A DNA stretch of 64,000 nucleotides from Escherichia phage 236Ecol005PP. Below the pieces are notes generated by a model that had not been told where the DNA came from, ran no database searches, and saw only the letters and a list, made by a program, of their open reading frames with translations. Below, piece by piece: positions 4,180 to 7,127 of this stretch (positions are counted from its first letter, which is position 1; every line of letters starts with the position of its first letter). Both the position numbers and the translations under genes were made by a program. The DNA lies in the sequence record PP434423.1. The stretch is one strand, 5' to 3'.

Positions 4180-4356
4180 TTATACTCCAAAGAGTTTATA
4201 AACTATTTTAACATCTCCTTTTGCTACTTTATAGCCTTCAGCCCAAGATACAACCGAGTTTTTATCTGAAGATTCAAAGTCAGGCATTGGACTTTCATCA
4301 ATGTTCACACAGTATGTTTCTTCATTTTCGTCAAACCAAATAGTTAAAGTAGTCAT
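4180..4356 (-). CDS. small hypothetical protein, 58 aa
   Basis: ATG at 4356 preceded by GGAGAAATAA; below the ORF-track length cutoff. Confidence 0.4.
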   Translation of the reverse strand: MTTLTIWFDENEETYCVNIDESPMPDFESSDKNSVVSWAEGYKVAKGDVKIVYKLFGV

Positions 4357-4424
4357 TTATTTCTCCGCTTCTGTGGTTGTTTTGATAAATCTATAATAAC
4401 ACCGTCCTTGGTGTTTGTATACAC

Positions 4425-4688
4425 TTATTTCATATTATTGAAATATTCTTCTGCGATTTCGTCGTTATCATGGTAAACTTTAGAAGACAGTTTAACATAA
4501 CCTTCAGCAGTGAACATGTTAATCACAACTTTTACAGTATACCACTGACCGTCTTCATTACCCATTACTGCGTAAGTTTCAAACATCGGATGGTCAGGAC
4601 CGATAACTTTAATATCATTCACTGTACGACCGAAATCTTCTGAAACGCATTTCATAAAGAAGTTGAACAGTTCGCCGTAATTATCCAT
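4425..4688 (-). CDS. hypothetical protein, 87 aa
   Basis: ATG at 4688 with GGAG RBS (track start 4700 is TTG). Confidence 0.6.
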   Translation of the reverse strand: MDNYGELFNFFMKCVSEDFGRTVNDIKVIGPDHPMFETYAVMGNEDGQWYTVKVVINMFTAEGYVKLSSKVYHDNDEIAEEYFNNMK

Positions 4689-4731
4689 TTCATTCTCCAA
4701 GTTGTTTTCTGTATCAGTAGTTGATATTGAT

Positions 4732-4761
4732 ATAGTACCATGGAAGAACAGGGATGTAAAC
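4732..4761 (-). promoter_or_regulatory. T4-type early promoter (-35 GTTTAC, -10 TACTAT)
   Basis: GGTTTACA-N17-TACTAT on minus strand upstream of ORF 4425-4688. Confidence 0.45.
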
Positions 4762-4894
4762 CATTTTGTGAAAAAATTTTTTTAAAAGTTTTAGGGAATT
4801 CTAGGGCAGGGAGGGGCAATTAAAGGATAGGATAATATATTATAAAGGGTAGAAACTAAATGATGCCTAGAGAGGTCCAAAAAGGCCTAGATAC

Positions 4895-4923
4895 TAAAAA
4901 GCCCCAACCTTTCGGCTGGGGCT
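4895..4923 (-). terminator. rho-independent terminator closing the tRNA/stable-RNA transcription unit
   Basis: minus strand AGCCCCAGCCGAAAGGUUGGGGCU followed by UUUUU. Confidence 0.6.
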
Positions 4924-4971
4924 AAGCCTTGCGGCAACCTTGTCGGGGTTCCACCTGCTAAGGCAAGTGTT

Positions 4972-5066
4972 TGTACGAAACGCCGGGATTTGAACCCGGT
5001 TATTGAGCAGTTGACGCTACTCAATATTTTTAAAAGGCCATATCTCGACCATATCCGAACGTTCCG
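4972..5066 (-). ncRNA. tRNA-like stable RNA (candidate equivalent of T4 RNA species 1/2)
   Basis: canonical T-arm CCGGG-TTCAAAT-CCCGG and 7-bp acceptor-like stem, but no standard anticodon arm. Confidence 0.3.
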
Positions 5067-5210
5067 TCAAAAACGCTACTCGGCTTACGGCAAAGATATT
5101 TCCTCGAATCGATAATTCGGTGCGCCGTTTCTGCTGTGATGTAAGAGGGCATCAATAAACGCAAAGATTATTAACGCAATTCCTTACTCAGGGAACATCA
5201 GTCCGACGAC

Positions 5211-5765
5211 TTACCGGTAGCGACCCGGTTTCTCATTTGGTATTTCAAATTGTGTAGATTTAGTATCTAATTTTTTAACTATGGAACTTATGTCATGAAA
5301 GAAAAACCATTCGCCATTTATATGGTCCTGATTATAAATGCTGTGCATATATTTTTCAAGTTCTACTGCATCCTGGGAATATCTAAATGATACTATTTTA
5401 AAACTTTTAAACGGTGAAAATGTATTTGCTGTTATAACTCTAACATCAGGTTCTATACTTCTTCCTATTTTATAATAATTAGGATTTGTAGTATCTACCA
5501 TTATGTATACGAAAGCCTGTCGATAGCTTTTTTCTATATCAAATTCATCTTTAAATTTCAAAAGATTTAGGGCGGCAGTCCTACAAAATACTTTCCATTT
5601 TGACAAGCGTTTGGCTTCAGTCATAGAAAAGAATTTTTTCTTATCTGTTATTTTAAGAAAAGCAACATTTTCAATTAGTTCTTGTGTTATTTCAAAATTA
5701 CCGCGGTATATTAATCCAGCTTTTATAGCCAAATTAATTTGGTCCCAGTCTACATCACTTCTCAT
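5211..5765 (-). CDS. T5orf172 / GIY-YIG-like domain protein, 184 aa (possible seg-type mobile endonuclease)
   Basis: C-terminal AFVYIMVD...NYYKIGRS...GEWFFF resembles the T5orf172 GIY-YIG-like fold; ATG start. Confidence 0.7.
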   Translation of the reverse strand: MRSDVDWDQINLAIKAGLIYRGNFEITQELIENVAFLKITDKKKFFSMTEAKRLSKWKVFCRTAALNLLKFKDEFDIEKSYRQAFVYIMVDTTNPNYYKIGRSIEPDVRVITANTFSPFKSFKIVSFRYSQDAVELEKYMHSIYNQDHINGEWFFFHDISSIVKKLDTKSTQFEIPNEKPGRYR

Positions 5766-5786
5766 AATATTATTCTCTCAATAATT

Positions 5787-5863
5787 TGGCCAGGGTGAAA
5801 GGATTCTAACCTTTAACCTGCGGTTTAGAGGACCGCTACTCTATACAATTGAGTTACACCCCG
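5787..5863 (-). tRNA. tRNA-Arg (anticodon UCU)
   Basis: hand-folded cloverleaf; anticodon loop CCTCTAA; T-loop TTAGAAT; encoded CCA. Confidence 0.55.
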
Positions 5864-5989
5864 TAATTAGTTCACAGCAATACCTACTCCAACAATCAAG
5901 ATGTCTTCACACGAAATTAAGAGAAGAGTGATCAGTTCAACCACTATAATCGCGTCAAGTAGATATTAATGTGACAACTGTCACAAGTT

Positions 5990-6064
5990 TGGCGGACATG
6001 CATGGATTCGAACCATGGACCAATTGATTAACAGTCAACTGCTCTACCACTGAGCTACACATCC
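5990..6064 (-). tRNA. tRNA-Asn (anticodon GUU)
   Basis: hand-folded: GGATGTG acceptor, GCTC/GAGC D-stem, loop CTGTTAA, T-loop TTCGAAT, encoded CCA. Confidence 0.7.
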
Positions 6065-6068
6065 AAAT

Positions 6069-6155
6069 TGGTGGGGAGTGATGGAGTCGAACCACCCGAG
6101 TCGCAATGACAATGGATTTACAGTCCACACCGCTACCTCTACGGGATAACTCCCC
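6069..6155 (-). tRNA. tRNA-Tyr (anticodon GUA), long variable arm
   Basis: anticodon arm GTGGA-CTGTAAA-TCCAT as in bacterial tRNA-Tyr; type II variable arm; encoded CCA. Confidence 0.7.
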
Positions 6156-6168
6156 TAATTCGTAATTT

Positions 6169-6243
6169 GGTGGCCCTGGGTGGAATTGAACCACCATCTG
6201 GCGATTATGAGTCGCTTGCTTGAACCTTCCAGCTACAGGGCCT
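6169..6243 (-). tRNA. tRNA with CAU anticodon (Ile-lysidine type as in T4, or Met)
   Basis: anticodon loop CTCATAA; T-arm GGTGG-TTCAATT-CCACC; encoded CCA. Confidence 0.7.
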
Positions 6244-6244
6244 T

Positions 6245-6319
6245 GGTGCTGATTGACGGAATCGAACCGCCGACCTTCTCATTACAAGTGAGTTGCTCTA
6301 CCTACTGAGCTAAATCAGC
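6245..6319 (-). tRNA. tRNA-Thr (anticodon UGU)
   Basis: GCTGATT acceptor, loop CTTGTAA, T-loop TTCGATT, encoded CCA. Confidence 0.8.
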
Positions 6320-6325
6320 AAAAAC

Positions 6326-6415
6326 TGGCGGAGGCGATAGGATTTGAACCTATGAGTCGCCGGAGCGACTGCCGGTTTTCAAGACCGGTGCATTAAACCA
6401 CTCTGCCACGCCTCC
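6326..6415 (-). tRNA. tRNA-Ser (anticodon UGA), long variable arm
   Basis: anticodon arm CCGGT-CTTGAAA-ACCGG; type II variable arm; encoded CCA. Confidence 0.8.
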
Positions 6416-6417
6416 AG

Positions 6418-6491
6418 TCTCCGCGGCAGGATTTGAACCTGCGACATTCTGCTCCCAAAGCAGACGCTCTACCAAACTGAGCTACACGGAG
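6418..6491 (-). tRNA. tRNA-Pro (anticodon UGG), CCA not encoded
   Basis: anticodon loop TTTGGGA; T-arm GCAGG-TTCAAAT-CCTGC; 3-prime end lacks CCA. Confidence 0.75.
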
Positions 6492-6501
6492 TAAATTAAA
6501 T

Positions 6502-6575
<74 letters not shown>

Positions 6576-6581
6576 AAACTT

Positions 6582-6668
6582 TGGTACGAGAAGTGGGACT
6601 CGAACCCACAAGGAAATCATTCCGCAGCATTTTAAGTGCTGTGCCTTTACCAATTTGACCATTCTCGC
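6582..6668 (-). tRNA. tRNA-Leu (anticodon UAA), long variable arm
   Basis: anticodon arm CAGCA-CTTAAAA-TGCTG; T-arm GTGGG-TTCGAGT-CCCAC; encoded CCA. Confidence 0.8.
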
Positions 6669-6669
6669 G

Positions 6670-6742
6670 CTGGGAATAAAGGACTCGAACCTTTGCATCT
6701 AGCAGTCAAAGTGCTATGCCTTATCAACTTGGCTAATTCCCA
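6670..6742 (-). tRNA. tRNA-Gln (anticodon UUG), CCA not encoded
   Basis: anticodon arm TAGCA-CTTTGAC-TGCTA; T-arm AAAGG-TTCGAGT-CCTTT. Confidence 0.75.
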
Positions 6743-6811
6743 ATTATTAACAAAGGCTCTCAAGCAAGAACCCTTGATGATAGAGGGTATTAATCAGTGC
6801 GATATGAGTTA

Positions 6812-6835
6812 ATAATAACAAATAATTCTTAAAGC
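6812..6835 (-). promoter_or_regulatory. middle-type promoter (MotA box TGCTTTA, -10 TATTAT) upstream of tRNA cluster
   Basis: minus strand TGCTTTA-N12-TATTAT. Confidence 0.45.
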
Positions 6836-6839
6836 ATAT

Positions 6840-7127
6840 TTACCATTTATGATAATACATGTTTACGATGCATTCAAGACCCAAAGGATTCTTGAAAATA
6901 TCATATTCAAGAGGACCTTTTTCTGTTTCAATAAAGAAATCAAAATTTACTGTATTAAATTTACGGTCTTCCTTCACTAATTTAACTTGAGAAGATGAAC
7001 GGTCAATGTAAACCTTTTCAACTTCAAAACATGTTAAAATGCCATAATCGTCAATCAAGGCTTTAGCCGCGTCTTGATCATATTTATATCCATTTTCAAT
7101 GGATGATACTTTCGCATAAAGAATCAT
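6840..7127 (-). CDS. hypothetical protein, 95 aa
   Basis: ATG start; compact ORF between tRNA cluster and ip locus. Confidence 0.6.
   Translation of the reverse strand: MILYAKVSSIENGYKYDQDAAKALIDDYGILTCFEVEKVYIDRSSSQVKLVKEDRKFNTVNFDFFIETEKGPLEYDIFKNPLGLECIVNMYYHKW

Follow-up and report, generated by a model that had tools for sequence, protein, structure and literature searches.

A T5 Orf172-type nuclease gene next to tRNA-Arg in a T4-like Escherichia phage probably forms a homing cassette with that tRNA gene

Results

An Orf172-type ORF between tRNA-Arg(UCU) and rnaD

The 64,000-nucleotide (nt) stretch analysed here (the window; Escherichia phage 236Ecol005PP, record PP434423.1) comes from a T4-like phage of the genus Tequatrovirus, which shows 96-97% identity to REP2, REP3, BCH953P2 and teqskov across its tRNA region. 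ORF calling together with Pfam and PHROG searches placed in this region an open reading frame (ORF) of 184 amino acids on the minus strand (5211..5765, read from 5765 to 5211), which encodes a two-domain nuclease of the T5 Orf172 family (PHROG 5032) and which public records label 'hypothetical protein' and nothing more. The minus-strand operon reads tRNA-Gln, Leu, Gly, Pro, Ser, Thr, Ile, Tyr, Asn, a 126-nt spacer, tRNA-Arg(UCU), the ORF, rnaD, rnaC and a terminator.

The tRNA-Arg(UCU) gene ahead of the ORF (5787..5863, minus strand; detected by ARAGORN and scoring 59.3 bits in Rfam) is a distinct allele, called below the cassette allele, with C33 and not U33. A 21-nt spacer (5766..5786, minus strand), in which a GAGAG run similar to a Shine-Dalgarno sequence can be read, separates its 3' end from the ATG of the ORF. 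The corresponding spacer measures 19-21 nt in VR7/VR26/ESCO10, in KpV477 and in the metagenomic locus L019, and about 9 nt in PS2 and Muldoon. A hairpin masking the ribosome site or the start codon, as proposed for segB, was considered but found no support, the fold being weak (z = -1.3). At the other end, the last 8 codons (NEKPGRYR) and the stop codon fall in the 5' 26 nt of rnaD (species 2 stable RNA; 5118..5236, minus strand; T4 annotation, 95.5% identity), and in relatives with a 3' flank other than rnaD the ORF ends about 7-8 codons sooner.

A first-pass annotation had located this ORF where T4 carries segB. The tRNA region is indeed the same, but the slot is not: the ORF occupies the junction of tRNA-Arg and rnaD, two genes separated by a single nt in T4, and segB lies there on the opposite side of tRNA-Arg. 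The tRNA set of the window phage is T2-like, with Tyr and Asn present and segB absent, so that the tRNA-Asn site preferred by SegB is present.

Domain organization and conservation of the ORF product

As expected from the resemblance of the C-terminal half to T5orf172, residues 85-155 of the ORF product scored above the Pfam cut-offs for T5orf172 and MUG113 in a profile search (PF13455, 38 bits for a cut-off of 22.3; PF10544, 27.9 bits for a cut-off of 20), while the generic GIY-YIG model PF01541 remained under its cut-off (E=0.13). The match to PHROG 5032 extended over the full length (2.7e-59, amino acids 1-176). An AlphaFold model (pLDDT 90, pTM 0.84) consists of a four-helix N-terminal domain (amino acids 7-73) and a C-terminal beta-beta-alpha-beta-alpha domain; the predicted structure displays the GIY-YIG alpha/beta fold, and its best structural matches were DNA nucleases throughout. 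The C-terminal nuclease domain (T5orf172/MUG113) corresponds to amino acids 84-170 (5256..5516, minus strand) and the N-terminal domain to amino acids 1-83 (5517..5765, minus strand). One of the four helices of the latter is long and basic, with the motif CRTAALNLLKFK, and the domain is presumed to act in nucleic-acid recognition. The N-terminal 90 residues or so, which had initially been set aside as unrelated, are better described as a conserved domain specific to the Orf172 family, all-helical and with one conserved Cys.

Residues Y87, K99, G101, R109, P118, E137, E152 and W153 were invariant in 40/40 relatives, chosen as diverse representatives with less than 50% mutual identity. The GIY-YIG catalytic set is complete (Tyr, Y87; Arg, R109; metal-binding Glu, E152), and the second Tyr of 'YIG' is replaced by a Lys (K99). 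R109 stands 8 residues past G101, a spacing which we take to equal that from G19 to R27 in I-TevI. The dN/dS ratio was about 0.11 in each half of the ORF, indicating purifying selection, and the reading frame was unbroken in all 18 close copies (18/18).

An exhaustive profile search recovered 2286 proteins that have the nuclease domain in common, just 23 of them at E<=1e-10, and many of the top matches were proteins of 157-192 amino acids aligning from the N-terminal domain on. The family profile recovered nothing among solved structures, even at E<=10, and NCBIfam has no family for the ORF product. A locus search in IMG/VR returned three loci, each an already known isolate.

Relationship to Orf172 of T5 and BF23, to SegB and to defence nucleases

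The ORF product is 29% identical to BF23 ORF trn 2.8, the equivalent of T5 ORF065 (172 amino acids), over amino acids 14-170 (E=7e-15), and the VR7 record annotates its own copy as similar to 'BF23 ORF172c'. From its length and the VR7 note, this 172-amino-acid ORF is probably the namesake of the Pfam T5orf172 domain. On sequence grounds, the ORF product is a member of the T5/BF23 Orf172 two-domain family, in which an N-terminal helical domain precedes a C-terminal T5orf172 domain in proteins of 157-192 amino acids. T5 ORF065/BF23 trn 2.8 and BF23 trn 2.12.1 have the two-domain model in common with it (full-length BFVD matches to T5-like phage proteins, TM about 0.7) and give identical Pfam matches; their ORFs likewise start about 21 nt past one tRNA and have their stop codon within the next. 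They differ in being carried by Demerecviridae, with tRNA-Cys/Asn and tRNA-Lys as partners.

T4 SegB is comparable in several respects. Its gene sits in the same operon, wedged among tRNA genes and co-transcribed with them, and is absent from close relatives; the protein belongs to the GIY-YIG superfamily, the gene moves with neighbouring tRNA genes, and its stop codon is cut off by the maturation of the next RNA. SegB recognizes a T-arm motif of tRNA genes, cuts at tRNA 3' ends after CCAR and promotes its own inheritance plus that of the surrounding tRNA genes (PMC2330249); its authors proposed that expression is restrained by tRNA-Arg maturation, which would sever the stop from the last codon of the message (PMC2330249). 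However, orthology was rejected (BLASTP E=0.57). In SegB, an N-terminal PF01541 domain is followed by a NUMOD3-type binding region at the C terminus, so the domain order is reversed, as the first-pass annotation had observed from the C-terminal position of the nuclease domain. The two genes also occupy different slots (Ile/Arg for segB, Arg/rnaD here), and the activity of SegB is demonstrated whereas that of the ORF product is predicted.

In ICP1 and T5-like phages, T5orf172 genes are considered to encode homing endonucleases (Barth, Dunham and Seed 2023, PMC10448857). Those described in that work (ICP1 and others, Odn) resemble the ORF in their catalytic domain and in a patchy distribution at boundaries of genetic exchange, and the nuclease activity of one member depends on a conserved glutamate (PMC10448857). 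They differ in lying near terminase, ribonucleotide reductase or capsid genes, whereas the Orf172 family lies in tRNA arrays. About 87% of T5orf172 homing endonuclease genes have CapR, DUF723 or DUF4397 zinc-finger domains and about 13% are without them; T4 was reported to be without a T5orf172 gene, and domestication of T5orf172 relatives is documented, for example for CapR (Barth et al. 2023, PMC10448857).

HNH-fold nuclease ORFs are also interspersed among phage tRNA genes, and a limitation of their expression through transcript processing has been proposed, but their fold is unrelated. Anti-phage defence nucleases were considered and rejected: PADLOC matches to PD-Lambda-1 and PDC-S57 were weak (3.5e-5 and 3.4e-4) and confined to the nuclease domain (amino acids 81-173 of far longer models), which argues that the ORF product is no member of a defence system.

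The ORF is patchily distributed and lies in a sharply bounded block

Among 1075 phage records matching a 2.8-kb region, the ORF was present in 10 (8 Tequatrovirus phages), or about 1%. In Gaprivervirus, Dhakavirus, Mosigvirus and Jiaodavirus it was found in one or a few members each, and it also occurs in some Serratia phages. Comparison of the window with VR26, a phage of the VR group, delimited a minimal mobile block of 628 bp (5237..5864, minus strand) composed of tRNA-Arg, the 21-nt spacer and ORF codons 1-176, which is 95.1% identical between the two phages while the flanks are 70-80% identical. In Gaprivervirus VR7 the common block runs from 5864 to 4896 (968 bp at 93.3%) and so includes rnaD and rnaC too; in Dhakavirus ESCO10 it runs from 5864 to 5116 at 90.4%. 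Tequatroviruses with the ORF show about 100% identity to one another in the cassette, against 92-98% in the neighbouring DNA, which points to a recent spread.

The edges of the block are sharp, as a presence/absence comparison proposed in the first-pass annotation was meant to reveal. The 5' edge coincides with the first tRNA base. The 3' edge, located by aligning the window, VR26 and T4 with one another, is the junction ATACCAA (5237..5243, minus strand), that is the last 6 nt of a T4-type tRNA-Arg and the 1-nt spacer ahead of rnaD. Homology to T4 spans 4420-5243, homology to VR7/VR25 restarts at the same point, and in six comparisons the junction between the tRNA-Arg 3' end and the rnaD 5' end was a breakpoint again and again. 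Empty alleles were identified in T4, with the two RNA genes 1 nt apart, and in VR25, in which an ordinary tRNA-Arg abuts rnaD; the flanks of VR25 are 97% identical to those of the ORF-carrying VR7. The ORF thus combines the patchy presence and identifiable empty allele by which free-standing homing endonucleases are recognized with a block far more similar than its flanks, the mark of horizontal transfer of such genes.

Within Tequatrovirus, the cassette tRNA-Arg allele occurs in the records with the ORF and in no others, and it is dissimilar to the T4, ZZ23/T2-type and KpV477 alleles. A joint origin of this tRNA and the ORF in relatives of the KpV477 or T5 type was considered and rejected. 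The tRNA-Arg genes of those phages share only 41-49% identity with it (64% in My1), so that separate ORF lineages adjoin unrelated tRNA-Arg(UCU) genes.

Taken together, these data lead us to favour the view that the ORF is a free-standing homing endonuclease gene of the T5 Orf172 branch of GIY-YIG, which, with a tRNA-Arg(UCU) gene of its own, probably makes up a mobile cassette of about 0.63 kb. The suggestion that a distinct mobile endonuclease had entered the tRNA locus is therefore the best-supported one, with the addition that the mobile unit includes a tRNA gene.

In other phages the tRNA-Arg/rnaD junction houses unrelated ORFs, namely orf116 (phrog_3355) in ZZ23 and ESh27, whose TGA stop is nt 2-4 of rnaD, and gp150 (phrog_33509) in SP18 (L002 1891-2241; L013 3042-3386; L017 1317-1556). 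This makes the junction a hot spot of ORF insertion, which fits the published view that nuclease genes lie at exchange boundaries (PMC10448857). In VR26 (L008 3001-3660), a different 89-bp sequence behind the cassette takes the place of rnaD and part of rnaC, and extends the ORF to 219 amino acids. At 4891-4926, REP2, ZZ23 and teqskov have an extra 519 bp with a 157-amino-acid ORF (phrog_2280, unknown function), flanked by a 36-bp direct repeat that contains the operon terminator and absent from the window and T4; this insert is another presence/absence cassette.

Such a hot spot might also be driven by other homing endonucleases (SegB-like and the like) or by tRNA repeats, the ORF being a passive passenger whose product is otherwise employed, decayed or limited to DNA binding, like the domesticated CapR. 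The unrelated ORFs at the same junction, the 157-amino-acid ORF of relatives with its duplicated terminator, and the documented domestication of T5orf172 proteins (PMC10448857) speak for this explanation. However, the full catalytic set is invariant in the 40 relatives, which argues against a binding-only protein; the ORF is inside every transferred block regardless of flanks, and the same tight placement between tRNAs recurs in unrelated phage families. We consider the passenger explanation unlikely.

ORFs of the family reside in tRNA arrays

The genomic contexts compared comprised 11 distant metagenomic representatives together with T5, BF23, Aeromonas 44RR, phiAS4, My1, phiR2-01, S132, Riker, KpV477 and Serratia phages. 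In 16/17 distinct contexts, the family ORF forms part of a tRNA array, has the same orientation as the tRNAs, and overlaps a tRNA gene or is at most 25 nt from one. The ORF starts 4-25 nt past a tRNA, or its stop lies in the next tRNA (overlap of 9-39 nt) or 0-15 nt short of it, or both. Protein clades follow the identity of the neighbouring tRNA, with an Arg clade and a Lys clade. The cluster of the window ORF and the representatives P0013, P0014 and P0015 (all E<=1e-38) touch tRNA-Arg(UCU), upstream in T4-like and downstream in T5-like phages, and a second protein group is consistently ahead of tRNA-Lys(UUU). The tRNA-Arg genes beside family ORFs belong to unrelated lineages (40-70% identical), which argues that this adjacency is not mere shared descent of one cassette.

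The tRNA regions of T5-like phages contain at least two family paralogues, each by a different tRNA (L022 2501-2989 and 3985-4506; L014 643-1161 and 2959-3432), which suggests an expansion inside the array. A coding sequence of 186 amino acids behind the Gelderlandvirus tRNA-Arg was considered as a further member and rejected, since it belongs to DUF7338, outside the family.

Anticodon-loop variants in the partner tRNAs

U33 is nearly universal in tRNAs. The anticodon loop of the tRNA-Arg(UCU) beside a family ORF was non-canonical in every case. It reads C-C-U-C-U-A-A (C33) in the window type and the metagenomic L019 tRNA-Arg (window 5787-5863; L011, L008, L012, L019) and G-U-U-C-U-A-A (G32) in the tRNA-Arg of KpV477, PS2, K36, My1 and L028. 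The canonical C-U-U-C-U-A-A is found in the ORF-less alleles of T4, ZZ23, VR25, SP18 and Gelderlandvirus (STP4-a, SEA1), and the tRNA-Arg of STP4-a/SEA1 is the nearest ORF-less relative of the window allele. C33 also occurs in the tRNA-Lys after BF23 trn 2.12.1 and in that of S132, 44RR, phiAS4 and L029, as well as in one Asn, one Glu and one Ile partner tRNA; C33 tRNAs of these four identities overlap the stop of a family ORF at L014 3423-3500, L035 7459-7533, L015 2972-3047, L029 799-876, L026 1393-1468, L023 643-717 and L030 863-939. T5 has no such ORF ahead of its tRNA-Lys and has U33 there.

The comparison was extended to 226 unique tRNAs from all loci compared, whose sequences are not phylogenetically independent, a limit on both of the following tests. 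Loops without U33 were found in 11/32 ORF-adjacent tRNAs and 9/194 other tRNAs (Fisher p=6e-6), and loops with either non-U33 or a purine at position 32 in 17/32 and 10/194, respectively (p=1.5e-10). Five ORF lineages are without a variant partner tRNA. Conversely, a C33 tRNA-Ile(GAU) with the loop C-C-G-A-U-A-A occurs without an adjacent family ORF in four phages, T5-like and Aeromonas T4-like (L035 11254-11329, L036 3693-3768, L037 9495-9570, L015 5051-5126), and may be what remains after the loss of an ORF, or may have arisen independently. An ORF upstream of the C33 tRNA-Ile of S132 was considered and rejected as unrelated to the Orf172 family. According to a GenBank note, the C33 tRNA-Lys of BF23 is an effective suppressor once its anticodon is changed, which indicates that a C33 tRNA is able to function.

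Three readings of this loop pattern are possible: self-immunity of a nuclease that reads or cuts the DNA of the loop, a tRNA nuclease accompanied by a resistant tRNA, or a tRNA carried as anti-defence cargo. In the second, the protein would cut the anticodon loop of host or competitor tRNA-Arg(UCU) near position 33 and the neighbouring C33 or G32 tRNA would be the resistant replacement, which corresponds to the tRNA-targeting factor put forward as an alternative in the first-pass annotation. The excess of C33 or G32 in touching tRNAs over those elsewhere in the same loci (17/32 against 10/194), the alteration of the same loop position in Arg, Lys, Asn, Glu and Ile partners, the canonical CUUCUAA in the nearest ORF-less relatives of each Arg allele, the tracking of partner tRNA by the Arg and Lys clades and the purifying selection on both domains are all in agreement with it. 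Yet the top structural matches are all DNA nucleases, and we know of no GIY-YIG RNase. Moreover, a resistant tRNA would be common to all genomes in the cell, so that the spread of the block between genera and its 1% frequency are left unexplained; the five ORF lineages without a variant partner and the C33 tRNA-Ile of four phages without a family ORF do not fit either. The loop pattern keeps this alternative alive, at a low probability.

Evasion of host tRNases has been proposed as a role of variant anticodon loops in phage tRNAs (PMC10264068). The cassette could accordingly be mainly anti-defence cargo, in which the variant tRNA-Arg resists a host anticodon nuclease and is the object of selection while the nuclease gene gives mobility, and the GenBank note on the BF23 suppressor, a functional C33 tRNA-Lys, is also in its favour. 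In contrast to this expectation, the cut positions of known host nucleases vary by tRNA, whereas here a single position is altered in five tRNA identities and tracks the adjacent ORF. A beneficial tRNA should also be common without the ORF, and in Tequatrovirus it never is. Selection for anti-defence as the main explanation appears improbable to us, although it is compatible with the homing-cassette explanation.

Other features of the tRNA operon

Downstream of rnaD lies rnaC (species 1 stable RNA, with a tRNA-like T-arm; 4973..5111, minus strand; T4 annotation, 95.5% identity), and the stretch of rnaD and rnaC folds with z = -4.0. In the sequence, an intrinsic terminator with a 10-bp stem and a T-run (4900..4923, minus strand) closes the tRNA operon, in agreement with the T4 transcript map (PMC2330249). 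A consensus match to a sigma-70-like promoter within the ORF (5331..5359, minus strand; TTGAAA-17-TATAAT, 11/12) is directed towards rnaD/rnaC. It is the best such match of the region, in which the total equals the chance expectation, and it might restore rnaD/rnaC expression after insertion.

An Rfam scan of 4300-7000 returned tRNAs only; neither rnaC nor rnaD nor the 126-nt spacer matched a family. This spacer, between tRNA-Asn and the cassette (5864-5989), is about 95% conserved in hundreds of Tequatroviruses, folds with z = -2.4 against shuffles, and may represent the remnant of a tRNA or a processed RNA that has escaped annotation. The tRNA called tRNA-Met(CAT) by ARAGORN at 6168-6242 is the homologue of T4 tRNA-Ile and is annotated tRNA-Ile_CAT in REP2.

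Discussion

The nuclease fold, the intact active site, the purifying selection, the patchy distribution and a sharply bounded block transferred between genera point to a homing cassette. We infer that the protein would cleave DNA at a site in the tRNA region and promote its own homing. The layout of the ORF, with a stop codon in the next RNA, is like that of segB, and by analogy we propose a SegB-like cycle. The transcript of the gene would be part of the long tRNA precursor and would be translated only weakly; since rnaD contains the stop codon, maturation of this RNA would sever the message ahead of the stop. During mixed infection, the N-terminal helical domain would bind tRNA-gene DNA of an ORF-less phage and the C-terminal domain (Y87, K99, R109, E152) would cut in or beside the resident tRNA-Arg gene. 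Repair off the ORF-carrying genome would then copy the ORF and the adjacent tRNA-Arg allele into the recipient, at the expense of tRNA-Arg alone (T4, VR25) or of tRNA-His, tRNA-Arg and orf116 (ZZ23 type).

Several points weigh against this homing-cassette explanation. Fold and profile comparisons detected no recognizable DNA-binding fold in the N-terminal domain, and Pfam found in the ORF product no CapR, DUF723 or DUF4397 zinc finger, unlike 87% of T5orf172 homing endonuclease genes. Mosigvirus ESh27 has the ORF without tRNA-Arg, so the pairing is not obligatory. A useful function related to tRNA could also account for strong purifying selection across deep divergence combined with strict confinement to tRNA arrays, and sharp edges at the ends of RNA genes could result from recombination by other phage nucleases.

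The homing-cassette explanation may be extended, tentatively, to the Orf172 family as a whole: each nuclease would read one tRNA gene or tRNA, act near position 33 and travel with an 'immune' copy altered at U33 or C32. We regard this generalization as possible but doubtful. If true, Orf172 cassettes would be a general vehicle swapping single tRNA genes between unrelated phage families, and would account for some of the phage anticodon-loop variants now put down to escape from host nucleases.

A SegB-type homing endonuclease in a tRNA cluster and T5orf172 genes suspected to be homing endonuclease genes were already known, so the gene itself is no surprise. Three aspects go beyond the searchable literature: the exact edges of a cassette that unites a tRNA gene and a nuclease gene, the strict confinement of this subfamily to tRNA arrays, and the variation at positions 32 and 33 of the partner tRNAs. 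The first provides a clean natural case of a tRNA gene crossing phage genera as cargo of a nuclease gene. The second amounts to a family-wide rule, according to which Orf172 nucleases reside between tRNA genes only (16/17 contexts). The case also suggests a probable role for the 172-amino-acid ORF of the T5/BF23 tRNA region, whose function had gone unreported. The third aspect, the link between the nuclease and C33/G32, opens both the cut site and the origin of odd phage anticodon loops to testing. The most likely picture is that of a selfish homing endonuclease by which phage tRNA genes are reshuffled as well, and it bears on how phage tRNA sets are assembled and exchanged as well as on the idea that their variants evade host anticodon nucleases.

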